In this document: in pieces, positions 12,994-36,954 of the stretch
How the letters are laid out: each line of letters begins with the position of its first letter
Numbering within the stretch: position 1 is the stretch's first letter
Assembly (NCBI GenBank): GCA_040880105.1
Contig: JBBDJA010000014.1
Span: forward strand, 50,624-114,623
Source: Waddliaceae bacterium
GTDB lineage: Bacteria; Chlamydiota; Chlamydiia; Chlamydiales; SLOH01
Direction: 5' to 3'
DNA: 64,000 bases
The notes under the pieces: model-generated
Seen by the model: only the letters and a program-made list of their open reading frames with translations
Told to the model about the DNA's origin: nothing
The model's database searches: none
Program-made: the position numbers and the translations under genes

Positions 12994-13106
12994 AGTAGAT
13001 CCTACTAACCGATAAATCCCTGGACATTCCCATTTGGAATCAATGTTCGGTTACTTTGATGTATAGAAAGAAGTTTGCGATTTGTCAATTGACGATTAAG
13101 AAAAAA

Positions 13107-13470
13107 CTCAGGAAAGCGGTAAGCCGGATTCTGTCGGCCTTTCAGTAAAGAAAGGCGAGCAATCATTCATCTAGGGCCTCCGTTGCCGGAAGCCTCAAGC
13201 GAGCCAAATATGAGTAAGTGTGACGGAGAGCCAATTCACTCACTCTTCTTGCTTCAGATAGGGTTTGCCACCGCTCAAGTCTCCTTGAGTCAGTCCGATT
13301 CATAAAACCGGCATTTCACCCTGTTTGCAACTAAAAGCTGCAACGGTTTGTTTTCTGTGGCACTTTCCGTAGCCTCGCGGCCCCCAGCCTTTCGCTGGTA
13401 TCCTCTCCTGTGAAGTCCAGACTTTCCTCGCACGCAAAAAAACGCGTGCGCGATTGCTTGCTTTCCTGAG
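13107..13470 (-). ncRNA. rnpB: RNase P RNA, bacterial type A
   Basis: The minus strand contains the universally conserved P4 strands GAGGAAAGUCUGGACUUCACAGG (5') and ACAGAAUCCGGCUUACCGC (3'), plus CCUAGAUGAAUGAUUGCUCGCC. The terminal P1 helix is 5' CUCAGGAAAGC / 3' GCUUUCCUGAG. About 364 nt in an otherwise ORF-free gap. Confidence 0.88.
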
Positions 13471-18485: not shown

Positions 18486-19706
18486 ATGGCAAAGAAGAAG
18501 AGCAAAACAGATCAACCTAACGCGCAAAATCCATTGATCTTACGGGCAAATCGTTTGATAGATGCATTTGCTAAGTCCGATGAAGAGCGCAATTTTTATC
18601 TGGATCGAGTCGAAGGATTTCTGGTTCTTGTTGACCTAGATAAATCACAAGAAGAACTTGATAAGTTAGAAGCCGAGCTCGAAAGTCATTCCGAACGGTA
18701 TTGTTTAATTCCTAAGCTTTCCTACTATGAGACAAAAAAAATCATGGAGGGCTTTGTCAATGAAAAAGTCTTTGATATTGATATTAAGGAAAAGTTGCTT
18801 GATATCATTCAATCTAAAGAAGCCAGAGAAAATTTTATCGAGTTCATCCACGACCATATTTCCGAATTAGAAAAATGGCAGCAGTTCTATCAAGAAAGAT
18901 CGCGGATCCGTATTATTGAGTGGCTTCGAAAAAACAATTTTCACTTTGTATTTGAAGAAGATCTAGACATTCCTCTTCATACTATGGAGCTTGTAAAAGA
19001 GAATTTATTTTCACCAAAAGTGGGAAAAGAGGTGCAAGCAGCTAGAAAAACAATGGTTGCGAAGGCGCAGTCGTACTACTCCAATGAAGCGCTTAATCCC
19101 AAACCCAAACGCGGGCGCCCACCGAAGCAAGTGGCAAAATCAGAGATGGAGCCACAGATGACATCCGATATCTACACGCAAGTTCCAGCGCCTGTTCGCT
19201 CGTTTCTTTATATACCTGAAATTAAAAGCGTCACAGAGGTGACATTCTCATCTAAATATGAGACAAGGCAAGACCTTGTCGCTCACATGAGAGAGAGTGC
19301 AAATGAGGAAGGTAGAGACTTAAAGCACATTACAGAAAAACTTGCAGCTCTTCGTCAATTAACTGAAAAGTGGCATGAAAACGAGGCGGAAACGTCTCCG
19401 GACATCGAAGAAGCTCCTTCTAAACCTGTGCCAAAAAAGAGAATTACACCAGAGAGAAAGAGCCCGGATAAGATTGAAAGAAGTCCTGAAAAAAAGGCGC
19501 CGGCCACTCCTAAAAAGAAAGCACCTCCAAAAAAGGCACCTGTAGCTACTAAAAAGAAAGCACCTGCAAAAGCCGCCGCTGCGCCCGCTCCAAAAAAGAA
19601 AACGCCTGCGAAAAAACGGATCATGCCAACTAAAAAGGCAGCTGAGAAAGACAATAAAACACCCATGCGACGTGCACGCAAACTTCCTCCAAAAAAATCG
19701 AAGTGA
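18486..19706 (+). CDS. Conserved protein (UPF0158/CT429-like N-terminal domain, recalled from memory) with a histone-H1-like K/A/P-rich C-terminal tail
   Basis: 406 aa. The N-terminal 300 aa are globular (ERNFYLDRVEGFLVLVDLD...). The last 100 aa or so are KKAPATPKKKAPPKKAPVATKKKAPAKAAAAPAPKKKTPAKK... Confidence 0.7.
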   Translation: MAKKKSKTDQPNAQNPLILRANRLIDAFAKSDEERNFYLDRVEGFLVLVDLDKSQEELDKLEAELESHSERYCLIPKLSYYETKKIMEGFVNEKVFDIDIKEKLLDIIQSKEARENFIEFIHDHISELEKWQQFYQERSRIRIIEWLRKNNFHFVFEEDLDIPLHTMELVKENLFSPKVGKEVQAARKTMVAKAQSYYSNEALNPKPKRGRPPKQVAKSEMEPQMTSDIYTQVPAPVRSFLYIPEIKSVTEVTFSSKYETRQDLVAHMRESANEEGRDLKHITEKLAALRQLTEKWHENEAETSPDIEEAPSKPVPKKRITPERKSPDKIERSPEKKAPATPKKKAPPKKAPVATKKKAPAKAAAAPAPKKKTPAKKRIMPTKKAAEKDNKTPMRRARKLPPKKSK

Positions 19707-20509
19707 GGCCGGAGAAGAGACAAGCAATTGTCGATTGGATGGCGCGTTTAGGGATTGATGAAAAGGATTTAGAAGAATCTTTTGTTTTGGGCTCCGGACG
19801 CGGGGGACAGAAACGACAAAAAACGAGCAATTGTGTTGTTCTGCGTCATTTACCGACAAAAACCGTCATCAAATATAGTAAAAGTCGCTCAAGAGAGCTT
19901 AATCGCCTGCTCGCTCGCCGCTTACTCTGTGAAAAATTAGATCCAGTGCCCGCATCTCAAAATAAAATACGAAAGCAGAAAAAAAGACGCCAGCGCCGCG
20001 GGGCTGTAAAATTCCTTTGCGATGAGACGCTTGGGCAGTTAGGGGAGTGGCTGAGAGCTGCAGGTTATGATACAGACATTGCAGCGGCCGGAACAAGTGG
20101 TGATCATCTGATCAAACAAGCAAAAAAAGAAAAACGAGTATTCATTACTTGCGATCATTATTGTATTGAAAAGGACCCAGAGTCGCAATTCTCAATCTAC
20201 CTCTCATCCAATGATCAAAAGAGCGCTGTCCGTGAACTCACTGAAAAAATTTCGATCGACTGGCTATATAAACCTCTTACAAGGTGTTTGAAATGCAACA
20301 CACCTTTCATAAAAGCGCCCGAGGATGCATTAAGCAATGCACTTGAAATCAACTTAGAGCCATGCTCGCATTGCCCGCGTTGCAAGCAACAGGACCCGCA
20401 TGGTACGCATACTGACAATCTGTTACAGATCTTGCGGAGTTTTCGGAGCTTTCGGTTTATTGGTGACCCAGCAAATGAGCGGGAAGAGAAAGAACCAGAC
20501 GGCGCCTAA
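19703..20509 (+). CDS. Fusion protein: GGQ (class-I release factor / ArfB-like peptidyl-tRNA hydrolase) domain + basic linker + Mut7-C (DUF82) PIN-like RNase domain with zinc ribbon
   Basis: N-terminus: DLEESFVLGSGRGGQKRQKTSNCVVLRHLPTKTVIKYSKSRSRELNRLLA. Linker: KIRKQKKRRQRRG. C-terminus: KFLCDETLGQLGEWLRAAGYDT...RVFITCD...RCLKCNTPF...CPRC. The GTG start overlaps the upstream stop (GTGA). Confidence 0.7.
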   Translation: MRPEKRQAIVDWMARLGIDEKDLEESFVLGSGRGGQKRQKTSNCVVLRHLPTKTVIKYSKSRSRELNRLLARRLLCEKLDPVPASQNKIRKQKKRRQRRGAVKFLCDETLGQLGEWLRAAGYDTDIAAAGTSGDHLIKQAKKEKRVFITCDHYCIEKDPESQFSIYLSSNDQKSAVRELTEKISIDWLYKPLTRCLKCNTPFIKAPEDALSNALEINLEPCSHCPRCKQQDPHGTHTDNLLQILRSFRSFRFIGDPANEREEKEPDGA

Positions 20510-21017: not shown

Positions 21018-22394
21018 GTGACAGTAGAGGTTTTATCGCGCATTCAGTTCGCGTTTTCAATCACCTTCCATTATATTTATCCTCCTTTGAGCATCGGACT
21101 CTCTCTTGCTATCATTTATATGGAATGGATGTTCTTGCGAACAAGAAGTAAAGCATGGGAAGCGACAACAAAGTTTTGGATCCGCGTATTTGCATTGACA
21201 TTTGCCCTTGGAGTTGCAACGGGAATTCCCTTGCCGATCTCCTTTGGTACGAATTGGGCGCGTTATTCAGAATTTGTCGGAGATATCTTTGGTAGCGCGC
21301 TTGCAGCAGAAGGAGTCTTTGCATTTCTAGTTGAGGCAGGATTTTTGGGGATTTTGATTTTCGGTTGGGATAGGGTCTCTCATTGGGTTCATTTCATCGC
21401 AACAATCATGGTCAGTTTAGCAGCCCATTTTAGCGCGGTATGGATTGTAGTCGCAAATTCATGGATGCAAACCCCGGCAGGATACGAGACCTTTACGCGC
21501 CCCGATGGGACAACAGGAGTTGTTGTCACCGATTGGTGGACGATGATTTTAAATAAGACAAGTGTCGACCATGTGTTACATGTGATTATTGCCTGTTGGA
21601 TGGCCGGCGCATTTCTGATTATCAGTATTGCCGCCTATTACCTTTTAAAAAAGCGGTTTCGGCAATTTGCAATCACCAGCATGAAAATCGGGCTTGTAAT
21701 CGCGACAGTCAGTTCCGTTTTGCAACTCGTTTCAGCAGATCAATTGGCAACAAAGATTGCAGAATTTAACCCTGAAAAATTTGCCTCCTTTGAAGGTGTT
21801 TTTAAAACACAAGAATTTACCCCAATGTACCTTCTTGGCTATGTGGATGAAGAGAATCAAACGACACGTGGAATTTCTATTCCCGGGCTTTTAAGTTTTC
21901 TTGTGCACCGGGACTTTAAAACACCGGTTGCTGGGTTGGAAGAGTTTTCGAAAGACCGCTGGCCTAAGGTCAATGCTGTTTTCCAATTTTACCATATTAT
22001 GATCACGATGTGGGGTCTTATGGTCGTGGCATCCATACTTGGGATCTACCTATGGCGAACAGGTAAGTGGAACCAGCATCCTTGGATTTTAAAATTTCTT
22101 ATCGCCTCAGTGATCTTTCCTCAATTAGGAGGCCTTGCCGGTTGGTACGCAGCTGAGATGGGTAGGCAGCCATGGGTTGTTTACAACTTACTTAAAACAG
22201 TTGATGCGTATTCTGAGTCTATCATCCTTTACGAGAACATCATCTCTCTTGCAATGTTTGTTTTTCTCTATTTATCGTTTTTTATTATGTTCTTATGGAT
22301 TCTTGATCAAAAAATTAAACACGGTCCGGATATAAGCGATGAGCATATTCCATGGACAGATAAAATGCATAGAGAGAGGGAAAAACGTGTTTGA
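21018..22394 (+). CDS. cydA: Cytochrome bd ubiquinol oxidase subunit I
   Basis: LSRIQFAFSITFHYIYPPLSIGL N-terminus, Q-loop region, GWYAAEMGRQPWVV. GTG start. Confidence 0.93.
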   Translation: MTVEVLSRIQFAFSITFHYIYPPLSIGLSLAIIYMEWMFLRTRSKAWEATTKFWIRVFALTFALGVATGIPLPISFGTNWARYSEFVGDIFGSALAAEGVFAFLVEAGFLGILIFGWDRVSHWVHFIATIMVSLAAHFSAVWIVVANSWMQTPAGYETFTRPDGTTGVVVTDWWTMILNKTSVDHVLHVIIACWMAGAFLIISIAAYYLLKKRFRQFAITSMKIGLVIATVSSVLQLVSADQLATKIAEFNPEKFASFEGVFKTQEFTPMYLLGYVDEENQTTRGISIPGLLSFLVHRDFKTPVAGLEEFSKDRWPKVNAVFQFYHIMITMWGLMVVASILGIYLWRTGKWNQHPWILKFLIASVIFPQLGGLAGWYAAEMGRQPWVVYNLLKTVDAYSESIILYENIISLAMFVFLYLSFFIMFLWILDQKIKHGPDISDEHIPWTDKMHREREKRV

Positions 22395-23418
22395 ACATAC
22401 CACACTTCAAATCTTTACCTATCTTGTTTTTTTTGCATCCATTGTTGCGTATGCCGCTCTAGATGGCTTTGATTTAGGCGTTGGCGCTCTACATTTACTT
22501 GTGAAAAAGGATAAAGAACGCCGCATCTTTCTCAACTCCATCGGACCGGTATGGGATGGAAATAGCGTATGGATTGTGATTGCAATCGGGGTTCTTTTTG
22601 CAGGGTTCCCATTTGCCTTTGCAAAGCTGTTTTCTTCTCTTTATCTGCCCATGATGTTTTTAATTGTCGGTCTGATGTTTCGAACTGTTGCAATGGAGTT
22701 TCGCAGTAAAAGCCCGCTGACTAAATGGCGCACCTTTTGGGATATTACCTTCGCTCTTTCCAGCTATCTTTTGATGATTAATCTTGGAATGATCATCGGC
22801 GCTTTAATTACAGGGCTTCCAATTGATGAAAATGGAAAGTTTCTTAGAGATCAGTTTCAGTTTATAACCATCTATTCTGTTTCTATCTCTCTACTTGTTA
22901 CAAGTCTTTTTGCTCTTCACGGAGCGATCTATCTTGCGATGAAGACAGATGGAGAGTTACGTGACCGTGTAAAAAGCTGGGTTCCAACGCTTAGTACGAT
23001 ATTTGTTTTCTTCTGGTTCACTGCAACCCTACTGACTGTTATACGCGAACCATATATGTTTGATCGTTTTAAGGAGCATCCCGTTCTTTTCTTTATCGCG
23101 CTTCTTGCTGTCGGCTGCATCTTATCTATTAGTTACTTTGAAAGAGTCGGGAGGTACGGCTTGGCATTTGTTGCCTCGACAGGGTCGATTGCTCTACTAG
23201 TGACCCTAGTCGGAATTGGGATTTTTCCACATATTGTGACATCCTCTATCGACTATCGCAATAGCTTAACACTTTATAATGCATCCTCAGGGCTAATTAC
23301 ACTTCGGGTGATTATGGTAGTTGTTTTAATTGGACTCCCACTTAGCTTTGGGTATCTGTTTTTTCTATATCGCACATTCCGAGGAAAAGTGGAAATTGAT
23401 GAAAAAACAAGCTATTAA
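22387..23418 (+). CDS. cydB: Cytochrome bd ubiquinol oxidase subunit II
   Basis: Start moved to the GTG at 22387 (VFEHTTLQIFTYLVFFASIVAYAALDGFDLGVG), 8-nt overlap with cydA. GPVWDGNSVW motif. Confidence 0.9.
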   Translation: MFEHTTLQIFTYLVFFASIVAYAALDGFDLGVGALHLLVKKDKERRIFLNSIGPVWDGNSVWIVIAIGVLFAGFPFAFAKLFSSLYLPMMFLIVGLMFRTVAMEFRSKSPLTKWRTFWDITFALSSYLLMINLGMIIGALITGLPIDENGKFLRDQFQFITIYSVSISLLVTSLFALHGAIYLAMKTDGELRDRVKSWVPTLSTIFVFFWFTATLLTVIREPYMFDRFKEHPVLFFIALLAVGCILSISYFERVGRYGLAFVASTGSIALLVTLVGIGIFPHIVTSSIDYRNSLTLYNASSGLITLRVIMVVVLIGLPLSFGYLFFLYRTFRGKVEIDEKTSY

Positions 23419-23473: not shown

Positions 23474-23556
23474 GCCGGTGTGGCGAAATGGTAGACGCGA
23501 TAGACTCAAAATCTGTTGTTGGCAACGACGTGCTGGTTCGAGTCCGGCCACCGGCA
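23474..23556 (+). tRNA. tRNA-Leu (anticodon CAA), class II with long variable arm
   Basis: Hand-folded cloverleaf. Acceptor GCCGGTG/CACCGGC plus discriminator A. D stem GCG/CGC. Anticodon stem ATAGA/TCTGT with loop CT-CAA-AA. Long variable arm. T stem GCTGG/CCGGC with loop TTCGAGT. No encoded CCA. Confidence 0.9.
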
Positions 23557-23557
23557 C
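23542..23557 (+). repeat. Island direct repeat, left copy (attL-like; 3' end of tRNA-Leu)
   Basis: gtccggccaccggcac covers the T-stem 3' strand, the acceptor 3' strand and the discriminator. Confidence 0.7.
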
Positions 23558-24051
23558 ATATTAACCGAGTAGTTCTTAGGGACTATTCGGTTTTTTTCTA
23601 TATAAACAAGAAATTGATATTAAATTTTTTGAGTTATTGTTTGCAAAATTTTATTTCTTTTATTGATTTATAATCTTTTCAGTCTCCCAGACAAAACAAT
23701 TCCTAGGTATTTCAAAGAAACTGATTTCGTAAGTAGGTTTTTTATTGTCGATGCAGCATGTGAAATTTGGGAGATTTTTAATAATTCAGATTGTTATTTT
23801 GAATTTATGAAGTTATATTTAATTACATTGTATTATAAAGATTTAGTGAAATTTAATTTTATATAATAAATAAAACTAAACTTCAAGTTAAGTAATATTT
23901 TTTTTAAATCTAAATTACATTTAAAGCATTTCATAGGCAATGCATCTGGTGTAAGTTAAAGTTTTTAAACATTATTTATTTCTATATTCATATAAAATTT
24001 AATTTTAAATTTCTGATAATTAGTGTGTTATGTTGATTTGAATTATAAAGT

Positions 24052-24079
24052 GGTGCATAATACTTCAAAAGAATGCACC
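24052..24079. promoter_or_regulatory. Inverted repeat GGTGCAT-N14-ATGCACC, 11 nt upstream of the RHH gene (candidate operator)
   Basis: Exact 7-bp arms read directly from the sequence, immediately 5' of the first gene of the island operon. Confidence 0.3.
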
Positions 24080-24089
24080 TTGGAACGAT

Positions 24090-24272
24090 ATGGATAAATA
24101 CGCACAGAAGACAATTCGCACCTCAGTGATTTTGTCTGAAGAATTACATAAGCAAATTATCGATTTAGCAAAAAAGAATGACGTATCTACTGCATGGATC
24201 ATACGGTATGCCTTGAATCAGTTTCTTGAGACAAGCGGAAGAAAATTAAAGCTTAAGCCGATAAAGGAGTGA
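24090..24272 (+). CDS. Ribbon-helix-helix (CopG/Arc-like) DNA-binding protein
   Basis: 60 aa. [41 protein letters not shown] fits the beta-strand, helix, helix RHH pattern. The stop lies 4 nt before the hsdM start. Confidence 0.65.
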
Positions 24273-24276
24273 AATA

Positions 24277-25854
24277 ATGACAGTCAAAATGAAAAAACAC
24301 AGATCGGGAGCAAATATTGGCTTCGAGCAACAGTTGTGGGCTGCCGCCGATAAAATGCGTGGTCATATGGACCCCTCGGAATACAAGCACGTCGCCCTTG
24401 GTCTAATCTTCCTAAAATACATTTCGGATGCATTCGACGAAAAATACAACCAACTCAAAGAAGAAGCTGGAGCAGACCCCGAAGATCGGGATGAATATTT
24501 AGCTGATAATATCTTTTGGGTTCCAAAGTCTGCACGCTGGAACGTGATTCAAGCGAATGCTCGGTCAACAAAAATTGGAACCATTATTGATGAAGCTATG
24601 ACTGAGCTCGAGAAGGAAAACACCTCTCTTAAAGGAATATTACCTAAAGACTATGCCCGCCCAACGTTAAACAAAGAGAAACTTGGAGATCTTGTCGATC
24701 TGATGAGTACCATAAGCATGAAATCACATGGTCAAAAGGATATTCTCGGACGCGTTTATGAGTATTTTCTTGCCCGCTTCGCAAGCGCTGAAGGGAAGGG
24801 AGGAGGGGAATTTTATACTCCTCAGTCGATTGTTCGTTTACTCGTCGAAATGCTGAAGCCTTATAAGGGAAGAGTATATGATCCTTGCTGCGGTTCAGGC
24901 GGTATGTTTGTCCAGTCTGAAAAATTTGTTGAGGAGCACGGTGGAGGTATTGGCGATATTTCCATTTACGGACAAGAGTCGAATCCGACTACATGGCGTC
25001 TCTGCAAAATGAACCTCGCTATCCGTCAAATTGAAGGAAACATCGGTTTCAAAAATGCGGACACTTTTCATAACGATCTGCACAAGGACCTCAAAGCGGA
25101 TTACATTATTGCTAACCCTCCTTTCAATATCTCTGATTGGGGAGGAGAAAACCTCCGTGAAGATATGCGTTGGAAGCTAGGTGTGCCCCCTGCAGGAAAT
25201 GCTAACTTTGCTTGGGTGCAGCATATTGTCCATCACCTAGCCCCCCGAGGCGTTGCAGGTTTTGTCCTCGCCAATGGCTCGATGAGTTCAAATACAGGCG
25301 GTGAGGGTGAAATTCGCAAAAAACTCATTGAAGCGGATCTTGTCGACTGTATGGTCGCTCTTCCAGGTCAGCTCTTTTACTCAACTCAAATTCCCGTCTG
25401 TCTTTGGTTTCTCGCTAAAGATCGGAAAGGAAGTTCGGAATCAAATTCTAAAATGCGAGATCGAAGAGGAGAAATCCTTTTCATTGATGCTCGCAAACTC
25501 GGATATATGGCGGATCGCACCCACCGTGATCTTGATGCTGATGCTGATATTAAATATATCGTCGATACCTACCATTCATGGCGAGGGGACGAGGTTGATC
25601 ATGAGTCATTCAAAAATGGATATCAGGATATTTCAGGGTTCTGTAAGGCAATAAAAACTGAAGAAGTACAAGAGCATGATTTTGTTCTGACCCCAGGGCG
25701 TTATGTTGGTGCAGAAGAGATTGAAGACGATGGAATCTCCTTTGATGAGAAAATGAAAGAGCTAACTCAAACACTTGCAGAACAGATGGAACGATCAAAT
25801 GAGCTGGATGAGGAAGTCAAAAAGCAATTGGCGAGGTTGGGTTATGAGTTCTGA
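24277..25854 (+). CDS. hsdM: Type I restriction-modification system, methyltransferase subunit
   Basis: HsdM N-terminal domain ([32 protein letters not shown]), SAM motif [10 protein letters not shown], catalytic motif IV NPPFN. Confidence 0.95.
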
Positions 25855-27097
25855 TTGGAAACGTGTAAAACTAGATCAAGCGCTTTGTATAAATCCCAAA
25901 GTACCGATGATTAAAGGTAAAGAATATCCTTTCGTTGAGATGTCATCCGTAGAAGCTAACAATAAAAATGTCAAAGCTAAAGAAATAAGAACTTTTAAAG
26001 GAAGTGGCTCCCGTTTTGTAGAAGGTGATACTATTATGGCACGAATAACTCCCTGCCTTCAAAATGGAAAAATAAGCAGATATAAGGCTTTTAATCAAGA
26101 AAAGCACGCCCATGGTTCAACAGAATTCATCGTTTTACGCCACAGAGAAAACATTACCCATAAAGAGTTCGTGTATTACTTGACCATATCAGATCAGGTT
26201 AAGCCCTATGCTATTTCACAAATGAATGGCAGTTCAGGAAGGCAGAGAGTCCCTGTCGACTCATTTAAACACTTAGAGATAAATTTACCTCCCATTGCTG
26301 AGCAAAAAGCTATTGCAGATATCCTTTCGTCACTAGACGAAAAAATCGAACTCAACCGCCAGATATGTAAAACTCTTGAGGACATTGCAAGTACGTTATT
26401 CAAAAGCTGGTTCATAGATTTTGATCCTGTAAAAGCAAAAGCTGAAGGTAGGGCGCCAGAGGGCATTTCTCCAGAGACTGCAGCACTGTTTCCTGATAGC
26501 TTTGAAGATTCTCCTAAGGGTCGTATTCCAAAAGGATGGAAACTAACAACTTTAAAAGAAGTAGCTTTAAACTTTGATTCAAAAAGAATACCCCTATCAA
26601 ATAGGGAAAGAGAAAAAAGAAGAGGATATTATCCGTATCATGGCGCTACAGGCGTTTTAGATTACCTTGATGATTATATTTTTGATGGAATTTATTTACT
26701 ATTAGGGGAAGACGGTTCCGTGGTCAAAGAAGACGGAACGCCCTTTACTCAATATGTGCGTGGTAAATTTTGGGTAAATAATCACGCCCACGTACTTCAA
26801 GGAATATACCCAATAAGCACAGAGCACCTGTATTTATTTATAAGACAATTAAATATTAGCCCATTCATAACTGGTGCTGTGCAGCCCAAACTAAATCAAA
26901 AAAACATGTATTCAATTCCTTTCGTTAAACCTGATAAAGAGATTTGTCGGCATTTCGCTAAAATTGTCTCACCATTATTTGAAAGAATTTATGCTCTTCG
27001 TCAAGAAATCAAATCTCTAGAAAAAATTAAAAATTCTCTAATCCCAGAACTACTCATTGGAAAAATTCGCATGAATAAAGGTACAGGTATTAAGTAA
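25844..27097 (+). CDS. hsdS: Type I restriction-modification system, specificity subunit (two target-recognition domains)
   Basis: Start moved to the ATG at 25844 ([12 protein letters not shown]), an 11-nt overlap with hsdM. Conserved spacer helices [26 protein letters not shown] and [15 protein letters not shown]. Two TRD-like halves. Confidence 0.9.
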
Positions 27098-27616
27098 ATG
27101 AGTGGAGAGAAAAGGATTCAACCCAAAATCAGGATGGAGCAATTATCAATGGCGTATATACATGCCATAGCCTCCCATTTGGGGTTTGGTGCTGACAAAC
27201 CACTAGTCGATCACGACAGCATTGACCTTACAATAAGTAGTTCCTCTGGTAGAAAAGTTAAACTTGACATACAGTTAAAATCTACTACTACTTTCACTAA
27301 TGAACAGTTGTTAAGTGAAAACATATCTTTTCACTTACCTATTAATAATTACAATGATCTTAGAACTGAAACACTTTGCCCTAGAATCCTCGTTGTCTTT
27401 TGCATGCCCTCTAATGAAAGTGAATGGATTGAGCATAGTACTGAACAATTGATCCTTCGAAAATGTGCATACTGGATCTCATTACAAGGCGAGCAGGATA
27501 CTACTAATAAAGAAACGATAACAATCAGAATTCCAACAAAGAATATTTTCTCCCCTGAAAGTCTGGAAAAACTCATGCTTAGAATTGATAAAGGAGAAGC
27601 CATTAACAATGATTAA
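27098..27616 (+). CDS. DUF4365-like protein (PD-(D/E)xK restriction-endonuclease-like fold), embedded between hsdS and hsdR
   Basis: 172 aa. EQLSMAYIHAIASHLGF...DHDSIDLTISS...VKLDIQLKSTT resembles the DUF4365 consensus (G..yv..ia...G......D.GiD..i......i.vQvKst). The ATG directly abuts the hsdS stop. Confidence 0.6.
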   Translation: MSGEKRIQPKIRMEQLSMAYIHAIASHLGFGADKPLVDHDSIDLTISSSSGRKVKLDIQLKSTTTFTNEQLLSENISFHLPINNYNDLRTETLCPRILVVFCMPSNESEWIEHSTEQLILRKCAYWISLQGEQDTTNKETITIRIPTKNIFSPESLEKLMLRIDKGEAINND

Positions 27617-28742
27617 TGATCTTAAACAAATTTTATTGGATCTATCTGTTCTAGACATCAAGCGCTACTTGCTAGCACAAGGCTGGTCACTAATAGATCA
27701 AATTCAAGATAAAGCCTTGATGCTTCAACATAAACAATATTCTGAAGAGCTAATTCTCCCAATGAGAAAAGAACTTGGTGACTTTTCTATTAGGATGGCG
27801 GAACTCTTTAAAACTTTATCTTTAATTAAAAATAGGCAAGTCCTCTCACTTATAAATGATATCAATATGTCAGGAACAGATATAATAAGAATAAGAATAA
27901 CAAAAGAAGCGACAGATGGAACCTTGCCTTTTAATACTACTAGCGAATTGTTTAATAATTCAAAAGAAATGCTATTATCAGCTGCTTCGGCAGTAAACAA
28001 TCCTCAAAAAATATATAGTTCGAGAAGAACAGACGAAGTTCAAAATTTTATCAACAAACTACGGGTCGGCCAAACAGAGTTTGGTAGTTATATTTTAACA
28101 TTTTTGTCTCCTGTTTCACCAAAGTTGTCAGAGCAGCTATCCCTTTTCCCCGATATGGAAGTCGACGATGACCCTTTTTCAAGACAAACAACAAAAATGC
28201 TTTTAAAAGCACTTATTGCTGCAAAAAAGGCTGCTGCAGAATCAATTACAAGCAATAGTATTGAACCATTTGAAAAGGCCATATCTCAAGGAGTCAGTGC
28301 GAATTTATGTGACTCCATTGCAAATATTGTAAATAAAGCTGGATCAACTGAAATATCTCTTACCTGGGCTAGCAATCGTCCTATTTCTAATTTTAAAAAT
28401 ATAGAAAAAGTATTTTTTGATAATGAAACGGCAGAAATACTTGGTGAAGTTGCTCGCACTTTTAAAAAAAATGAACCAATACAGAATCACTCAATTACGG
28501 GGTGGATTTACAAGCTACGGCATGATCAAAATGATCCTGAAGGGACGATTTACATAAGAACAACAATTGAAGAAAAAAACAGAACTGTAAAAACACAGTT
28601 ATCTGAAAATGACTATCAAAAAGCCTCAAAAGCCCATAGTGACAGAAATCTAATAACAATAACAGGTGAATTAATTATTCGTGATAAAAATGCTGAGTTA
28701 TTATACCCAAGAAACCTAATAATAGAAAATTACGATGACTAG
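27609..28742 (+). CDS. Hypothetical 377-aa protein, no recognisable domain, embedded between hsdS and hsdR
   Basis: Start moved to the ATG at 27609 ([28 protein letters not shown]), an 8-nt overlap with the upstream gene. Its own end overlaps the hsdR start by 8 nt. Clean long ORF with normal composition. Confidence 0.7.
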
Positions 28743-31700
28743 CCAATTATCTGAAGACATAGTAGAGCAAGCCACACTTTCCTGGCTTAAGGGTTTAGGT
28801 TATGAGATTGCCCAGGGACCCAACATCGCCCCCGACAGCCCATCTCAAGAACGAGTAAACTATTCCGATATTATTCTTGAAGACAGACTTCGATCCGCTC
28901 TATTTACTATAAACCCAAAGATTTCTTCCGAGCTCCTAAATGAAGTCACTCGCAAGGTAGTCAGCACACAATCCCTTGATCTTTTTGAAGACAACCGCAT
29001 TTTTCACCAAATGTTAGTTGATGGCATCGATGTTGAGTACCAAAGAGACGACGGCTCTATTGCAGGGGACAAAGTTTATTTGATCGATTTTGAAAACATC
29101 CAAAACAATAGCTTCTTGGCCGTCAATCAATTTACGGTTATTGAAAACAAACGAAACCGTCGCCCTGATATCATCATCTTTATCAACGGCATGCCTCTTG
29201 CTGTTATTGAACTCAAAAATGCAGTTAATGAAAACACTACGCTGAACCAAGCCTATAACCAATTTCAAACCTACAAAAAAGACATTCCCTCCCTTTTTCG
29301 GACAAATGCATTTCTTGTCATCTCTGATGGAATAGAAGCCAAAGCAGGATCTTTGACCGCCGATAAAGAACGGTTTATGCCTTGGAGAACAATTGACGGG
29401 TCAACAATTGCTCCGAAGGGTAAAGCAGAACTGGAAGTATTGCTGAAGGGTATGTTTCGACATGATGTTTTCTTGGACCTGATTCGAAATTTCACTGTTT
29501 TTGAGGTCGATGCAGAAAAAATCGTTAAGAAGGTTGCTGCCTATCATCAATATCATGCTGTCAACAAGGCGGTAAGCTGTACAGTCGATGCTTCTTCTCC
29601 AGAGGGAGACAAAAGAGCAGGCGTTATTTGGCACACTCAGGGGTCAGGAAAGAGTTTGTCAATGGCTTTTTATGCTGGAAAAATTATCCAAGAGACGGGA
29701 ATGGAAAACCCGACCTTGGTTGTTCTGACTGATAGAAATGATCTTGACGAACAACTATTCAATACGTTTTCGAACTGTAAATCACTGTTTCGCCAAACAC
29801 CTGTGCAAGCAAACAACCGAAAGCACCTGATCGACTTACTCTCGGTCGCTTCTGGTGGTGTCATTTTTACAACCATACAGAAGTTTAACTCTGAAAAGGG
29901 AGAAGAGTATCCTTTGTTGTCGGATCGTCGAAATATCGTAGTCATTGCCGATGAAGCGCACCGCAGTCAGTATGACTTTATCGATGGTTTTGCTCGTCAC
30001 ATGAGAGATGGACTTCCCAATGCCTCCTTCATAGGGTTTACAGGAACGCCTATTGAATTTTCGGATAAAGACACGTATGCCGTTTTCGGAGACAATATTC
30101 ACACCTATGATATTCAACAAGCCGTTGACGACGGAGCGACTGTACGTCTCTATTATGAAAGTCGTTTAGCTAAAATTGAGTTAAACGAAACTGAACGCCC
30201 TCATATTGAACAAGAATTCGAAGAAATTACGGAACGTGAAGAAGATAATCTCAAGCAGAAACTCAAGAGTAAATGGGCAAGATTGGAAGCTCTTGTGGGT
30301 GCGGAAAATCGCATCAACCTCCTTGCAGAAGATATTATTGAGCACTTCGAAAGGCGAAGAGAGGCAATGGAAGGTAAAGGAATGATTGTTTGCATGAGCA
30401 GGCGCATTTGCGTTGAGCTTTACAAGGCAATCATTAAATTGCGTCCTGAATGGCATAGTGATGATGACAATGAAGGTCTTCTGAAAGTTGTCATGACGGG
30501 TTCTGCGAGCGACCCACAGGATTTTCAACCCCATATCCGAAACAAGAAGGCTAGAGATCATTTAGCACTACGTGCTAAGAAACCTGAAGATTCCCTTAAA
30601 TTAGTGATTGTCCGTGACATGTGGTTGACAGGGTTTGATGCCCCTTGCATGCATACGATGTATGTGGATAAGCCGATGCGGGGTCACGGATTGATGCAGG
30701 CTATCGCCCGCGTAAATCGAGTATTTAAAGATAAGCCAGGTGGGCTAATTGTTGATTATTTAGGTATTGCTGACTTTTTAAGAAAAGCCCTTGCTAATTA
30801 CACTGAACAAGACAGGGGAGAAATAGGTGTCCCCCAAGAAGAAGCAGTTGCTGTCATGCAAGAGAAGTTTGAAATTGTTCAGCAATTATTTCATAACTTT
30901 GACTATTTATTAGCTATTGACGGGACTCCTACTGAACGTCTCAGTATGATACCGGCAGCAATGGAACATATCTTATCTCAAGAAAATGGACGTGAACGCT
31001 TCATGCAGTCAAGTCTTGATCTTTCAAAAGCTTTTGCCTTGTGCGCTGCAAGTGAAGAAGCTAAATCAATACGGGATCAAGTCGGATTCTTCCAAAATAT
31101 TCGAGCTGCTTTTGCAAAGTCCACCCTTGGTCCAGGAAAAGGATTGGATGAGCTAAATACAGCTCTTCAGCAGGTTGTATCCCGAGCTGTCGCTTCAACC
31201 GAAATGATAGATATTTTCGGCGCTGCGGGTCTGAAAAACCCTGAAATATCAATTCTTTCAGACGAGTTTCTCGTTGAAATCAAGGGAATGGAACGAAAAA
31301 ACCTGGCCCTTGAAATGCTTAAAAAACTTCTCAAGGATGAAATTCGTACACGGTCGAGTAAAAATGTGGTTCAAGCCCGAAATTTTACGGAGATGTTGGA
31401 AAGTACGATCCAAAAGTATCAGGGGCGTTTGATTGAAACGGCTCAAGTGGTTGAAGAGTTGATCGAGCTTGCCAAAGATATTCGTCAAGCTAATGAAAAA
31501 GGGAAAGAACTTGGTCTTAGTGAAGATGAATTTGCCTTCTATGATGCCTTGGGTGACAACAAAAGTGCTAAAGATGTGCTTGGCGACGATCAGTTAAGAG
31601 AAATTGCGAGGGAGCTTGCAGACTCGATTCGCAAAAATACTACAATTGATTGGACGCTCAAGGAAAGTGTTAAGGCGAGGTTGCGTATCCTCGTCAAACG

Positions 31701-31803
31701 CATCTTGCGCAAATATGGCTACCCGCCTGATTTACAAGAGAAGGCTACTCTGACAGTACTTGAGCAAGCAGAATTGCTTTCTAACCAGTGGATGAAGACT
31801 TAA
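28735..31803 (+). CDS. hsdR: Type I restriction-modification system, restriction/translocase subunit
   Basis: 1022 aa. HsdR N-terminal nuclease region ([18 protein letters not shown]), Walker [13 protein letters not shown] box [10 protein letters not shown], helicase C motifs ([14 protein letters not shown]). Confidence 0.95.
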
Positions 31804-31824
31804 ATTGTTAAAACTAGGAAAAAT

Positions 31825-32832
31825 ATGACCTCACAAAATTTTTGGATGATTCGAGCTGGAGCAGGCGGTAGAGTGATCAATGATTTCAAAGAAAAAAATC
31901 TGGTTGCTATTGGATGGTGTGAATCGATTGATCTTTCTAAGATTTCAACAAAACAAAATATTAAGGATTTAATCGCTTCAACTTATCCTGAAAATTCCCA
32001 ACATCAAAATAACATGATCGCTGGTCAAGTGTTTCGCTTTGTGCATGAAATAAAAGTCGGTGACAGAATAGTAACCTACGATTCAACGATGCGATCCTAT
32101 CTTGTCGGAAATGTCAGCACAGGTGCCTATTTTGATCTGTCGCAAATACATTCAATGCCTAACTGTAGACAGGTTGAGTGGAAAAATGAGGTTTCACGCG
32201 ACTTACTGTCTGTGAACGCTAAAAATTCCCTCGGGAGCATCATGACATTATTTAGAATATCTCCTGAAATCTCTTCCGAATTACTTTCTTGTGTTAAAAA
32301 TTCACCATTACAATCCCATCAAGAGCCCAACAATGATGTTATCGAAGATGAGGCTGATCTTTTGAAAGATGTGCAAGCCCGATCTCTTGAATTTATTAAA
32401 GACAGAGTTAGCAGACTTGATTGGGAATCTATGCAAATCCTTGTAGCGGACATTTTAACGGCAATGGGATATAAAACCCGAATATCACCTCCTGGCTCCG
32501 ATAGAGGAAAAGATATCATCGCTTCGCCTGATGGTTTTGGATTTGAACAACCTAGGATTGTTGTTGAAGTTAAGCACCGAAAAGGAAAAATGGGCGCACC
32601 AGAAATCCGTAGCTTTTTAGGAGGACGTCACAAGGATGATAAAGGGCTTTATGTTAGTACTGGCGGCTTTACTAATGAAGCACGTTATGAGGCAGACAGA
32701 GCGACAATACCGCTTACTTTAATGGATCTTGATGATTTAGTCATCGCTCTGGTCGAAAACTATGACAGTATGAGAGTAAATAGTAGGGCTCTTATCCCTT
32801 TGGAAAAAGTTTACTGGCCAATTGATAATTAA
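31825..32832 (+). CDS. Mrr-type (type IV-like) restriction endonuclease with an uncharacterised N-terminal domain
   Basis: The C-terminal Mrr_cat pattern is ILVADILTAMGY...GSDRGKDIIASPD...PRIVVEVKHRKGKMGAPEIRSFLGG...GLYVSTGGFTNEA. The N-terminus is FWMIRAGAGGRVINDFKEKNLVAIGW... Confidence 0.85.
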   Translation: MTSQNFWMIRAGAGGRVINDFKEKNLVAIGWCESIDLSKISTKQNIKDLIASTYPENSQHQNNMIAGQVFRFVHEIKVGDRIVTYDSTMRSYLVGNVSTGAYFDLSQIHSMPNCRQVEWKNEVSRDLLSVNAKNSLGSIMTLFRISPEISSELLSCVKNSPLQSHQEPNNDVIEDEADLLKDVQARSLEFIKDRVSRLDWESMQILVADILTAMGYKTRISPPGSDRGKDIIASPDGFGFEQPRIVVEVKHRKGKMGAPEIRSFLGGRHKDDKGLYVSTGGFTNEARYEADRATIPLTLMDLDDLVIALVENYDSMRVNSRALIPLEKVYWPIDN

Positions 32833-32919
32833 AAAAATATGATAGAATACACTTAAGATGAGATCATTAAAAATTTTTCCTACTCTTCAAGAGACTCAAG
32901 AAAAAAAGACTTAGAGTTA

Positions 32920-33285
32920 CTAGCTATTGTTATCAGCTTTAGGAAAAAGACAATTTGCTACAACTAATCCAAGAGCTACGACTTCCCCAAAAAATGTTAC
33001 CATAGCGGTATGAGGCAACCAAGAATAATTTCCGAAATCTAGAATCCCAAATCCTATCAGAAAAACCATGACCCAAATTGCAAAAGTTGACACCCCAAGT
33101 ACCCCACCAATTATCCAACTCCAGCGGCTTTGCAAACTTATTGTCTGTTCTTTTTCCCGGTTTTCCAGCTCTCTCTTTTTATTTTCGTGGCTTATAAGGT
33201 TTTCAAGGTCTTTAATATCATCTGGGGGAGAACTGCTTTTTAGACGAATATCTTTGATAATTTCGTTATAAATACTTTTATTCAT
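32920..33285 (-). CDS. Small membrane protein (charged coiled N-terminus, 2-3 TM segments), coupled to the ImmA/IrrE protease gene
   Basis: 121 aa. WSWIIGGVLGVSTFAIWVMVFLIGFGIL and AMVTFFGEVVALGLVVANCLF. Its start overlaps the upstream gene end by 8 nt. Confidence 0.6.
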   Translation of the reverse strand: MNKSIYNEIIKDIRLKSSSPPDDIKDLENLISHENKKRELENREKEQTISLQSRWSWIIGGVLGVSTFAIWVMVFLIGFGILDFGNYSWLPHTAMVTFFGEVVALGLVVANCLFPKADNNS

Positions 33286-33766
33286 TGCCCCTCAATAAAA
33301 GACGCCGATAACCAATTACTTCCTTTGAAACTGCAAAAAATCGGGCTAACTCGAAATCTGAATATTTATTTGCATATAGCGCTAACTGTTGAAGGGGTAC
33401 TAATATATTTGCAGCGAAGCAGTTAGCTTCTTTTTCACGGTTGTCTTCTTCTCCCCTGATAGGCTTACGGTAAAAGAGCGTTAATGATGGGTCTTCTCGG
33501 ATTAATTCTTTATGTAAAATCCAATGGCCTAATTCATGTGCGACAGTAAATCGTTTATGGGTGGAAGAGTCATTATTGTTTAAATATATTTTTTTGTTAT
33601 CAATATCGAGTATTCCTGATAGAGCCTGCCTTTCTCCAAAGTCAACATCTCTTACTGTAAGTCCGAATGATTCAGCGATTTCAATAATAGGGACTGGCGG
33701 GGATGTTAAATTCCAGTCCATCCAGATCTTTTTGGCTTCATCTCGAGCCTTTAAGTAATCAGCCAT
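33278..33766 (-). CDS. ImmA/IrrE family (COG2856, DUF955) zinc metallopeptidase
   Basis: 162 aa. HExxH motif in FTVAHELGHWILH, downstream EKEANCFAANILVP, typical of the family. Confidence 0.8.
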   Translation of the reverse strand: MADYLKARDEAKKIWMDWNLTSPPVPIIEIAESFGLTVRDVDFGERQALSGILDIDNKKIYLNNNDSSTHKRFTVAHELGHWILHKELIREDPSLTLFYRKPIRGEEDNREKEANCFAANILVPLQQLALYANKYSDFELARFFAVSKEVIGYRRLLLRGNE

Positions 33767-34157
33767 TTCTTTTGATTGCTCATATTAGATTGTTGGCTAT
33801 CAAGTTTAGTATCTTTCTTAATTGACTAGCAAGTAAACAGATTTTTTTTAACTCGAAGACCTATTTATAAATATTTTTTTTTGATTCTAGGATCTTAAGA
33901 ATTTGAAAAATGAAATGAATGCGACAAAAAAGTTATGAACAATCCGAAAAATCCCCTTTCGAAACCCCCTTGTTCTTGTTCTATTTTGGTGAAGGGGAGT
34001 AGATAAAGAGCAAATATAGCTCGTCTCTCTCGGAAAAATCGCCTTTAAACCCCAACGGCCACACCACTTCATTGATTTTTGGAAATTTTTTCTATGGATA
34101 TAAAGGGTTCAAACTCATAGATCTTGCATATTCCAAGGGCAAAATAGTTCGATAATT

Positions 34158-34173
34158 GTCCGGCCACCGGCAC
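34158..34173 (+). repeat. Island direct repeat, right copy (attR-like)
   Basis: gtccggccaccggcac, identical to 23542-23557. Confidence 0.7.
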
Positions 34174-34175
34174 TT

Positions 34176-34222
34176 CACCGGACAAAACCTCTTTAAAGAG
34201 GTTTTGTCCGGTGTTTCTTTTT
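34176..34222 (+). terminator. Orphan rho-independent terminator (probably the original tRNA-Leu terminator displaced by the island)
   Basis: Perfect 38-nt palindrome caccggacaaaacctcttt/aaagaggttttgtccggtg followed by tttcttttt. It starts 3 nt after the right direct repeat, and there is no plus-strand gene upstream of it. Confidence 0.6.
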
Positions 34223-34374: not shown

Positions 34375-36954
34375 ATGTATAGAAAATTCAGCTGTTTTAT
34401 TTGTTTTGCAGTTTTGTGTTTTTCGGCAAGTGCAAATACAGCGGATTTTGTTGTGCAGTCGGGAGATACAGTCAATGTTACGCAGGTGCTTTCCGATGAC
34501 GGAGACCAAGGGTTGATTGAAGATGGCGGTGCGATTGAGACTGTAGGTGCCAATGGCGTTAATATGCAAAATAGCAATCAGGTCGTATTAAATGAGGGTG
34601 TTATTTCAACAGACGGGGATGGCACTAACGGGATATTCAGCACTGGATCTAATTCTGAGATAACAAATAGCGGAAGTATTTCAACGGAAGGGATTAACTC
34701 CACTGGGGTTCGGAGTAGTGGATCTGATAATGAGATAACAAATAGTGGAAGTATTTCTGCGGAAGGGAGTGGAGCTAAAGGAATATGGAGCACTGGATCT
34801 GATGCAAAGATAACAAACAGTGGAAGTGTTTCCATACTGGGGGGTATGATGACAACACGTGGGATTTATGTCCAAAATGTCGACAATGCGGTCATATTAA
34901 ACAGTGGAAGCATCTCAATGATAGGAATGGGAGGGGTTGGCGTTGAGAGTAATGGAGTAGATGTTAAAATAACAAACAGCGGAAGTATTTCGACTCAAGG
35001 GAACTCCGGGCAAGGGATTCTCAATAATGGAGATCGTGCATTCATATTAAGTAGTGGAAGCATTTCAACGGAAGGAGGGGGAGCGCATGGGGTTCGCAGT
35101 ACTGGAGTTGATGTTAAAATCACAAATAGCGGGAGTATTTTGATACAGCTTGGTAACTCCCATGGGATTTTCAATCAAGGAGCTAATACTGAGGTAATAA
35201 ATAGCGGAAGTATCTCGACGTTAGGGTTTAATGCTCGCGGGATCCAAAACACTGCGATTGATGTTAAAGTGAAAAATGGCGGAAGCATTTCTACAGTTGG
35301 AGGGGGAGCGCATGGGATCTTCAATCAAGGAGCCAATGCTGAGTTAATGAATAGCGGAAGCATTTTAACACAAGGGGCAGGCTCTCACGGGATATATAAC
35401 TTAGGAGGAGGAGCTAATGCCGTCATATCAAATAGCGGAACCATTTCGACACAAGCGGGAGCCTCTCGTGGGATTTTCAATGAAGCAGATAATGTAGAAA
35501 TAACAAATAGCGGAAGCATTTTAACGGACGGGAATTCTGCTCGCGGAATTGTGAGCAATGGAGCTGATACTAAGATCATAAATAAAGGGAGTATTTCGAC
35601 CAATGGGTTTGACACTTTCGCTATTGAAAGCACAGGAGAAAATGCACTTATAGCAAATAGTGGAAGCATTTCGACTACAGGGGATTCAGCTAATGTGATT
35701 GATAGCCGAGGAGATGATGCGGTCATCATAAATAGCGGTGAGATTACTGCTACAGGTGATGGGGCTCATGGAATATTTTTATTTGAATCAGATGATTCTC
35801 ATATCATTAATTCAGGGACTATCATTTCCACAAATGGCCATGCGATTAATGTTGTGAATTCATTAAACCCAACTCTTACGCTCAATCAAGGCTCAAATAT
35901 TCAAGGCAGTGTTCGGAGTGAAAGTGCTTTAGATTTAAATGTCGGAAGGGGACTGAACCTACTCCTTACACTTACAGATGATAGTGACGGATTTGATCAG
36001 CTCAACATCTCATCGCCATACATTCTTCTTAATAGCAATTCTATTTTCGTTATGGACGGCACCCTTTTTGCTATCCATGAAGACATGGCTCACGATATGT
36101 CAGACTCCATTCTAGGCGGTGTTCGTCACAACTGCTGCCCGAGTCCGTGCGGATGCGGGCTTTGGACGCAAACAATAGGTTCTTATCGCAAGCGATTAGA
36201 AACAGGTGACTCACTCCCATACTCCGATTGGCAATTGGGACAGATGATCGGCTATGACAGAGTTTCCAATGGTGTTACAGTTGGCGTTTTCGGTGGTTAC
36301 CTGCACGGGGAAGGGAAGACATCCGATCCCATCGACAAGATTTGCCAAAATACCTATTTTGGAGGATTGTCTTTAGCCAAGACAGCCTGCGATGCATGTT
36401 TCGGGTTGACGTTTTCAGTCGGTTATGTCGATTGGGACGAGACACTTTATATTATGGATAACCTAGCTCCCGGCGGCATTGATCTCTATGCAAATGGAAA
36501 CTCTGGCACTTTTATCACTTCCGAGTTTTCCTTGATGAAACAATTCTGCACAACCTCCTTCAGTCCCTGTGTGACATTTTCAGTGCGTCATGCCGGTTTA
36601 TATTTAGGTAGCAGTACGGTAGAGGGAACAGACTTGAGCGTTGTGATTAAAAGAAGGGATATCGATCTTCTCTCCACACGTCTGGATGTGGGAATACCTT
36701 TGAGTGTCGATGGCTTCTGCTTCGAGCCTTTCACCGGAATTTATGGCAGATATAAATTGAAAGGAAGTCATATCGAGCTTGAAGGCAGCGACACGACTTT
36801 TCCTGTTGGTCTTAACAATAAACTGATGGCTTGGGTGATAGGAGTCAGAGGGGACCAGTGCTTTTGCAAAAAGCAAGTCACATTTTCTGTTAGCGGCGAT
36901 TTTGATAATGAAAAAAGTTCTCGTGTTTTGGGTAGTTTAGGAATTTATTTCTAA
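34375..36954 (+). CDS. Autotransporter (type Va) / Pmp-like outer-membrane protein with repetitive beta-helical passenger
   Basis: Signal peptide MYRKFSCFICFAVLCFSASA. 17 tandem 25-aa repeats (I-x-N-S-G-S-I-S-T-x-G-x4-G-I-x3-G-x4). Cys-rich junction (NCCPSPCGCGLW). C-terminal beta-barrel of about 280 aa with alternating-hydrophobic strands, ending ...LGSLGIYF. Confidence 0.85.
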   Translation: MYRKFSCFICFAVLCFSASANTADFVVQSGDTVNVTQVLSDDGDQGLIEDGGAIETVGANGVNMQNSNQVVLNEGVISTDGDGTNGIFSTGSNSEITNSGSISTEGINSTGVRSSGSDNEITNSGSISAEGSGAKGIWSTGSDAKITNSGSVSILGGMMTTRGIYVQNVDNAVILNSGSISMIGMGGVGVESNGVDVKITNSGSISTQGNSGQGILNNGDRAFILSSGSISTEGGGAHGVRSTGVDVKITNSGSILIQLGNSHGIFNQGANTEVINSGSISTLGFNARGIQNTAIDVKVKNGGSISTVGGGAHGIFNQGANAELMNSGSILTQGAGSHGIYNLGGGANAVISNSGTISTQAGASRGIFNEADNVEITNSGSILTDGNSARGIVSNGADTKIINKGSISTNGFDTFAIESTGENALIANSGSISTTGDSANVIDSRGDDAVIINSGEITATGDGAHGIFLFESDDSHIINSGTIISTNGHAINVVNSLNPTLTLNQGSNIQGSVRSESALDLNVGRGLNLLLTLTDDSDGFDQLNISSPYILLNSNSIFVMDGTLFAIHEDMAHDMSDSILGGVRHNCCPSPCGCGLWTQTIGSYRKRLETGDSLPYSDWQLGQMIGYDRVSNGVTVGVFGGYLHGEGKTSDPIDKICQNTYFGGLSLAKTACDACFGLTFSVGYVDWDETLYIMDNLAPGGIDLYANGNSGTFITSEFSLMKQFCTTSFSPCVTFSVRHAGLYLGSSTVEGTDLSVVIKRRDIDLLSTRLDVGIPLSVDGFCFEPFTGIYGRYKLKGSHIELEGSDTTFPVGLNNKLMAWVIGVRGDQCFCKKQVTFSVSGDFDNEKSSRVLGSLGIYF
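34585..35874 (+). repeat. Tandem coding repeat array, 17 units of about 75 nt (25 aa; four units are 24-28 aa)
   Basis: Units read from the translation, for example ITNSGSISTEGINSTGVRSSGSDNE / ITNSGSISAEGSGAKGIWSTGSDAK / ITNSGSISTQGNSGQGILNNGDRAF ... Confidence 0.8.

Follow-up and report, generated by a model that had tools for sequence, protein, structure and literature searches.

Genes at the locus

The 64,000-nucleotide stretch of a Waddliaceae bacterium genome (Chlamydiota; assembly GCA_040880105.1, contig JBBDJA010000014.1, positions 50,624 to 114,623) analyzed in this work, hereafter the window, harbors a type I restriction-modification (R-M) operon in which two additional genes, here called A and B, are lodged between hsdS and hsdR (Table 1). 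The gene B protein matches, at 100% identity, an NCBI record that comes from a metagenome-assembled genome of a Waddliaceae bacterium (Chlamydiota), in keeping with the origin of the window. The open reading frame (ORF) map and the raw sequence place these two genes in a single plus-strand run of seven, in the order RHH-hsdM-hsdS-A-B-hsdR-Mrr_cat. Family matches to HsdM, HsdS and HsdR (Pfam, NCBIfam and PADLOC) span the full length of each protein, as expected of a complete type I R-M system, and the catalytic motifs NPPF, TQGSGKS, DEAH and D..ExK are readable in the Hsd translations. Both the domain matches and the sequence of the junctions hence bear out the original prediction that the three hsd genes are intact and that a pair of extra genes, constituting a defence-candidate cassette, has been inserted between two of them.

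The junctions of the run are remarkably compact. The hsdM stop and the hsdS ATG overlap by 11 nt, the TAA of hsdS (27095-27097) is followed with no gap by the ATG of gene A, the ATG of gene B lies inside gene A (8-nt overlap, with a GGAG motif located 12 nt 5' of it), and the hsdR ATG overlaps the TAG stop of gene B, inside ATGACTAG. The abutting and overlapping junctions had been correctly described, but the claim derived from them, that the pair cannot be expressed independently of the R-M genes, goes beyond what they can sustain: overlapping codons reveal translational coupling and are no proof that the pair lacks independent expression. Co-transcription of the whole operon, cassette included, is nonetheless likely, because no convincing internal terminator was found in it by the promoter and terminator scan and because promoter-like matches are no commoner than in shuffled sequence (23 sites against 30 expected). 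The absence of any such excess makes the promoter scan uninformative, and internal promoters may exist. The RHH gene at the head of the run is probably a transcriptional regulator of the R-M and cassette operon, in a role comparable to that of RptR or the C-proteins, and the homologous operon at locus L085 has a gene with 51% identity to it at the equivalent place.

Table 1. Annotated features of the window, with the cassette and its operon listed first (coordinates refer to the window)
Feature	Position	Strand	Evidence and remarks
Gene A = PDC-M02A, 172 aa	27098..27616	+	Pfam DUF4365; PADLOC; phrog_27905
Gene B = PDC-M02B, 377 aa	27609..28742	+	PADLOC; AlphaFold; Foldseek; conservation
RHH (CopG-like), 60 aa	24090..24272	+	Pfam RHH_1 1.7e-05; 4 nt 5' of hsdM
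hsdM, type I methyltransferase	24277..25854	+	N6_Mtase 1.4e-111; HsdM_N 1.8e-27; PADLOC MTase_I 7.7e-232
hsdS, specificity subunit, two target-recognition domains	ATG 25844 to 27097	+	Methylase_S, 2 stretches
hsdR, type I restriction/translocase subunit	28735..31803	+	TIGR00348 4.6e-201; HSDR_N; SWI2_SNF2; T1R_D3-like; T1RH-like_C
Mrr_cat-domain protein	31825..32832	+	Mrr_cat 2.4e-24; PADLOC PDC-S02 2.1e-92; last gene of run
tRNA-Leu(CAA)	23474..23557	+	ARAGORN, Rfam; last 16 nt (23542-23557) = left repeat copy
16-nt direct repeat, right copy	34158..34173	+	identical to tRNA-Leu 3' end
121-aa predicted membrane protein without family and IrrE/ImmA-type M78 metallopeptidase, overlapping	32920-33285, 33278-33766	-	
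859-aa protein with 'NSGSIST.G..A.GI' repeats	34375-36954	+	no Pfam match; directly outside island
RF-1 domain + Mut7-C RNase domain protein	19703-20509	+	left flank
Cytochrome bd oxidase, cydA and cydB	21018-23418	+	left flank
RNase P RNA	13104-13469	-	left flank

The pair belongs to a catalogued candidate family

Comparison with PADLOC-DB v2 identifies the pair as PDC-M02, since both proteins match the models of this system over their full length. Gene A aligns to PDC-M02A with an E-value of 3.6e-56 (residues 10-168 on profile positions 4-164 of 165) and gene B to PDC-M02B with an E-value of 8.7e-106 (residues 8-373 on positions 10-374 of 380), and the arrangement of the system, with A followed by B, adjacent and on one strand, is the one observed at the locus. 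For gene B, Pfam and NCBIfam give nothing above noise. PDC stands for 'phage defence candidate', a computational designation (Payne et al. 2024, bioRxiv 10.1101/2024.01.29.577857). In that study, genes located within BREX, DISARM and type I R-M loci were collected, mobility-associated proteins were filtered out and 145 untested candidates were curated; the cassette FAM_01850>>FAM_00842 (CAS_00021, count 894) is listed in its Table S8 as 'assigned as candidate PDC-M02' and ranks second in abundance among the multi-gene cassettes that were accepted (10.1101/2024.01.29.577857).

The pair is thus already catalogued, if only as a computational candidate predicted from sequence, and the original prediction was mistaken in presenting it as an undescribed module: the PADLOC models that both proteins match were created from exactly this kind of embedding, and the pair shows clear homology to a described defence family, albeit one whose description is itself computational. 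The locus shares with the context that defined the candidate the same two full-length proteins, the same gene order and the same embedding, with no structural difference, and it stands out in being divergent, the Waddliaceae copy showing at most 55% identity to its nearest relatives. It is, hence, a divergent instance of a known candidate family and adds nothing categorically new. What the analysis does contribute is a domain map for gene B, evidence for family-wide conservation of the nuclease triad and the finding that the family does not depend on an R-M context. It can also be pointed out that a reading based only on sequence, prompted by extra genes wedged in an R-M operon, independently reached the published logic of 'guilt-by-embedding'.

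A literature search found PDC-M02 mentioned in no paper text and returned no experimental report of this pair. Papers testing other PDCs do not include it among those tested, and what the search turned up on DUF4365, DREN and PDC-M/PDC-S concerns only SPARDA, EAT16, Divona and tests of other PDCs. As a separate matter, the notion that the two proteins might be split fragments of an Hsd domain was rejected, each of them belonging to a large family of its own with uniform length and HsdS and HsdR being complete.

Gene A is a predicted stand-alone DREN nuclease

The assignment of gene A to the DUF4365 group of PD-(D/E)xK nucleases with a D...QxK core, put forward in the original prediction, is upheld by a Pfam match to DUF4365 (PF14280; E = 5.4e-24, 85.3 bits against a cutoff of 24.3) that covers profile positions 1-138 of 139, and by the conservation of D43, Q59 and K61. 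The core residues of the protein are D38, D40, D43, (D/E)57, Q59 and K61, and among 64 A-family proteins Q59 and K61 are present in all 64 and D43 in 63. The gene A sequence alone yields no match to solved structures; the A-family profile produces a sub-threshold alignment (E about 0.3) in which D43, Q59 and K61 fall on D74, D90 and K92 of EcoRV. Taken as a whole, gene A is, by prediction, a bare DREN/DUF4365 nuclease to which no sensor domain is attached.

Work on related proteins gives this assignment a functional background. The catalytic triad of the NbaSPARDA DREN domain is D41/Q60/K62, the isolated domain is monomeric and inactive, and its collateral nuclease activity appears only after tetramerization brought about by target-induced filament formation (PMC12205087). 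D43, Q59 and K61 of gene A correspond to this triad. In the toxin EAT16 of an extracellular contractile injection system (eCIS), mutations in the DxGxD...QxK motif abolish the toxicity of the DUF4365 domain (PMC11297309). A further DUF4365-containing protein is encoded by the integron cassette 'Divona', which is reported to be anti-phage.

Domain architecture of gene B

Gene B was modeled by AlphaFold with a predicted local distance difference test (pLDDT) score of 84 for the full-length protein and of 93.6 for residues 1-290 (predicted template modeling score, pTM, 0.89). In this model, residues ~291-372 adopt the b1-b2-b3-a-b4-b5 topology of an oligonucleotide/oligosaccharide-binding (OB) fold, and Foldseek matches this part to SSB, RPA, AspRS/LysRS anticodon-binding and HIN domains (E about 4e-3, prob 1.00). 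The earlier statement that no binding motif can be placed in this protein is, consequently, superseded by the C-terminal OB-fold of the predicted structure. At the other end of the protein, residues ~14-74 form an a-b-b-b-a unit that Foldseek finds to be HicA-like in both the PDB (6g26_F, prob 0.99) and BFVD; the family alignment contains no conserved histidine in this N-terminal unit. The core holds GQTExGS and GVSANLC(D/E), the two motifs that are best conserved in the family.

This core has no significant structural neighbor: a Foldseek search of residues 1-290 against the PDB returned nothing below E=0.1, and the search with the full-length model gave only local OB-fold matches. The models are therefore best described as consisting, from the N-terminus onward, of a HicA- or dsRBD-like unit, a conserved core unlike any known fold and an OB-fold. 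Several other candidates were dismissed along the way. A Cas10/Cmr2 match to residues 1-290 is noise (prob 0.20, root-mean-square deviation 12.6), a de novo helical bundle, the sole match of the gene B profile among solved structures (0.0018), was judged spurious, and a relationship to APAZ or Argonaute was set aside in view of the fold searches (top 50 PDB matches listed).

Distribution and genomic context of the family

Profile searches reveal a large and widespread B family, comprising 6,191 clusters at 50% identity (2,210 at E<=1e-30) with nearly all members of ~380 aa. Relatives of B occur in 470 of about 185,000 species genomes and extend over the Proteobacteria, Acidobacteriota, Chloroflexota, Planctomycetota and Firmicutes, an archaeal metagenome-assembled genome and other groups. 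Genomic context was analyzed in 80 related loci, 65 of which are informative, the other 15 lying on contigs too short to judge. An A-family ORF is found 5' of B in 75 of the 80, usually with an overlap of 4 nt, and the exceptions to the A-then-B arrangement are loci cut off by a contig edge, loci where a truncated remnant of A survives, one locus in which an insertion separates A from B, and two that lack A entirely. Loci with a remnant, a missing or an interrupted A are L017, L028, L034, L016, L014, L073 and L035; in the last of these, A and B are separated by two minus-strand 377-aa ORFs, possibly an insertion element.

The hsdM-hsdS-A-B-hsdR arrangement seen in the window recurs in 15 of the 65 informative loci, and probably in three more whose contigs end early. 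A further six are adjacent to hsd genes, and 41 have no hsd gene nearby, that is, within about 8 kb. Embedded members belong to at least five clades of the B tree, in which they are interleaved with solo members. When the genes closest to the pair on either side were scanned in batch with Pfam and PADLOC, HsdR accounted for 14-15 of 68 downstream neighbors; other downstream neighbors include mad3 of the methylation-associated defence system (MADS), AriA, GajB and DRT proteins, with HsdS and mad5 represented upstream. The remaining neighbors are recombinases and ordinary housekeeping genes, and insertion sites are highly diverse. Among the loci classed as solo (L005, L007, L012 and similar ones), several have mad5 upstream (four loci) or mad3 or mad2 downstream (two or three loci). 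Since these flanks match MADS components, PDC-M02 also resides in or beside methylation-associated defence loci.

Mobile elements carry the pair as well: it was detected on 14 plasmids, Leptospira phage LE1 encodes it as LE1-0038/0037, and in prophages of M. abscessus it forms genes 1-2 at the left end. Each of the two proteins corresponds to a separate PHROG family. Based on this distribution, A-B is an autonomous, mobile two-gene cassette that has been captured repeatedly by methylation-based defence operons and is not dependent on them.

The closest homologous operon

The operon at L085 has the order RHH-hsdM-(MNT/HEPN-like pair)-hsdS-A-B-Mrr-hsdR. Identity between the window and L085 reaches 73% for HsdM and HsdR, against 59% for A and 53% for B. 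A similar discontinuity is apparent in the GC content at third codon positions (GC3), which in the window is 0.33 for A and 0.24 for B versus 0.39-0.40 for hsdM and hsdR, and in L085 is 0.35 for the cassette versus 0.57-0.67 for hsdM and hsdR. Two other close relatives are stand-alone, including one in another Chlamydiales genome with the pair near groES/groEL.

The Mrr_cat gene of L085 (7881-8852) is located between B and hsdR, and its product shows 27% identity to that of the window, where the gene follows hsdR. A single slot of the operon thus accumulates several cassettes. The region of L085 between hsdM and hsdS (4218-6243) encodes an NTase_sub_bind protein and a Polbeta-nucleotidyltransferase domain; it looks like an MNT/HEPN-type pair, in which the Polbeta domain seems to be fused to HsdS or to overlap it, and represents another embedded cassette.

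A putative sensor-controlled nuclease and its alternatives

The interpretation that we favor, if only by a cautious judgment, is that PDC-M02 functions as an autonomous cassette in which gene B acts as sensor or scaffold and controls the DREN nuclease encoded by gene A, providing a second and independent layer of defence. By analogy with SPARDA, gene B would recognize an infection-associated nucleic acid or protein-nucleic-acid cue and would then activate or release A, probably by bringing A protomers together. In its active state A would cleave DNA, and possibly RNA as well, indiscriminately, so that either the invader is destroyed or the infection is aborted. In the locus described here, the cassette would thus constitute a second defence layer, rather than a part of the R-M complex or an effector that this complex must keep in check. 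Members of PDC-M02 fall into thousands of clusters and are spread over many phyla, plasmids and temperate phages, and the system couples a DREN nuclease, of a kind whose mode of activation has been worked out in SPARDA, to a partner with a core that matches no solved structure. Should the proposed mechanism hold, it would explain how such nucleases can be kept under control in a system that has no Argonaute.

The likeness to SPARDA resides in a common DUF4365/DREN domain with its D...QxK triad and, as seems likely by analogy, in an inert nuclease being switched on by a partner that senses nucleic acids. The differences are also substantial. There is here no Argonaute, APAZ or guide, and DREN, rather than being a fused domain, is encoded on its own as a protein of 172 aa; neither A nor B has a Pfam match to Piwi or APAZ, no SPARDA chain figures among the best 50 Foldseek PDB matches listed for either B model, and gene B bears OB and HicA-like modules in their place. 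EAT16 and Divona share the DUF4365 nuclease domain with gene A, but they are single polypeptides with other fused domains and lack a B-type partner.

A number of observations weigh against this interpretation. That B acts as a sensor and that A is activated through oligomerization are proposals drawn by analogy, and the OB and HicA-like matches are weak (E 4e-3 and 0.29, respectively) and were obtained on predicted structures. The conserved polar motifs of the core could, moreover, make gene B an enzyme and not a passive sensor. The defence function of PDC-M02 is itself guilt by association, since the literature search found no experimental test of it, and PDC labels are no guarantee of function: a representative of PDC-S02, the candidate family matched by the Mrr_cat gene of the window, gave no protection against T4, T5 or T7 in E. 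coli (10.1101/2024.09.26.614923). Many solo loci adjoin housekeeping genes, and a few loci retain an intact B with A decayed to a C-terminal remnant or absent, which suggests that the nuclease has occasionally been counter-selected.

A bolder account, which we advance tentatively, is that of a genuine, widespread, Argonaute-independent DREN system in which B, with its HicA/dsRBD-like unit, its core without a match among solved structures and its OB-fold, would represent a novel class of infection sensor and would assemble the inert A protein into an active oligomer on binding a phage replication intermediate. Repeated capture of the cassette by type I R-M and MADS operons would then reflect selected functional synergy, as in the case of a nuclease that fires on DNA ends or single-stranded DNA while restriction proceeds or is being evaded.

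It is plausible, though unlikely, that the pair is a toxin-antitoxin or addiction module, with toxin A neutralized by B and the pair stabilizing the island, plasmid, prophage or R-M operon that carries it with no sensing of phage. An overlapping two-gene operon encoding a small nuclease of toxic type would suit such a role, as would the cytotoxicity of a DUF4365 toxin, the presence of the pair on plasmids, in prophages and in a tRNA-linked island, the occasional decayed A next to an intact B and the HicA-like fold element of B. Yet B, with its large size (377 aa), its several domains (an OB-fold among them) and its strongly conserved core, is atypical of a labile antitoxin, Pfam detects in it no helix-turn-helix (HTH) or RHH autoregulator domain, although it does carry folds of the nucleic-acid-binding type, and the isolated DREN domain of SPARDA is inactive, and so not constitutively toxic. 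Toxin-antitoxin and abortive-infection roles are, in any case, compatible with each other.

The original prediction likened the pair to PrrC, as a latent effector guarded by the R-M system: A-B would be silenced by the HsdMS or HsdR complex and freed when an anti-restriction protein of the Ocr/ArdA type disables R-M. The resemblance to EcoprrI lies in one or more extra effector genes placed inside an hsd operon and co-transcribed with it. The repeated and independent capture of the cassette in the hsdS/hsdR slot (15-18 of 65 loci, at least five clades), its adjacency to genes of MADS, another methylation-based system, and the tight coupling of its codons to hsdS and hsdR in both the window and L085 are all consistent with this model, as is the reported ability of PARIS, Gabija and Zorya II to sense Ocr (PMC12255303). 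PrrC is, however, almost exclusively embedded (Payne et al., 10.1101/2024.01.29.577857), whereas PDC-M02 mostly is not, and it is an unrelated protein, comprising an ABC ATPase and an anticodon nuclease, to which neither A nor B shows similarity and for which neither has a Pfam or PADLOC match. The prevalence of loci devoid of hsd genes (41 of 65), the interleaving of solo and embedded members over several clades of the B tree and the stand-alone copies on plasmids, in temperate phages and, in a second Chlamydiales genome, next to groES/groEL disfavor an obligate guard of the PrrC type, and the proposed analogy is probably mistaken; we consider such a role quite unlikely.

It seems improbable, too, that A-B is an accessory of the R-M system that alters its activity through end processing after HsdR cleavage, restriction alleviation or control of specificity. 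The fixed place of the cassette between hsdS and hsdR and the combination of a nuclease with a nucleic-acid-binding partner would be in keeping with that role. Most members of the family, however, have no R-M neighbor, the Hsd proteins on either side of the cassette are complete and of canonical type, and the cassette itself, whose composition departs from that of hsdM and hsdR, is more diverged between the two operons than these genes are (53-59% versus 73% identity). Finally, a selfish, homing-type endonuclease by which A would spread the pair into conserved slots could account for the anomalous GC content and the repeated insertion at the same slot, but it is highly improbable in view of the lack of intron or intein context, the great diversity of insertion sites across the family, the failure of a repeat finder to reveal repeats flanking the cassette within the operon, the prior filtering of mobility-associated proteins by Payne et al. 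and the large conserved partner B, which it leaves unexplained.

A tRNA-linked island and its flanks

As originally proposed, the pair resides within a tRNA-linked island beside an Mrr enzyme, the former delimited by a tRNA-Leu repeat and the latter encoded by the Mrr_cat gene that follows hsdR. The 16-mer at the 3' end of the tRNA-Leu gene occurs twice in identical form in the window, against a chance expectation of zero, and this recurrence bounds an island of ~10.6 kb (23558-34173). The repeat proper is 16 nt long, and a 22-nt query taken from the tRNA 3' end found no second copy in the window. A strong hairpin terminator lies just after each copy of the repeat (23563-23592 and 34176-34213). 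Since no integrase ORF was seen within it, the island may be decayed or mobilized in trans. Imperfect repeats, both direct and inverted (D1, I2, I4 and I19), are present in the 530-bp AT-rich leader that precedes the RHH gene (23560-24090).

At the right end of the island, the M78 metallopeptidase assignment is supported by Pfam (6.9e-22) and by PADLOC CapP (5.5e-22), and no HTH partner was seen adjoining the gene pair. The peptidase and its membrane-protein companion may act in regulation or represent a further element of defence or abortive infection. The left flank is ordinary chromosome. Directly beyond the right boundary, the repeat-containing 859-aa protein looks like a chlamydial polymorphic-membrane or autotransporter-type protein.

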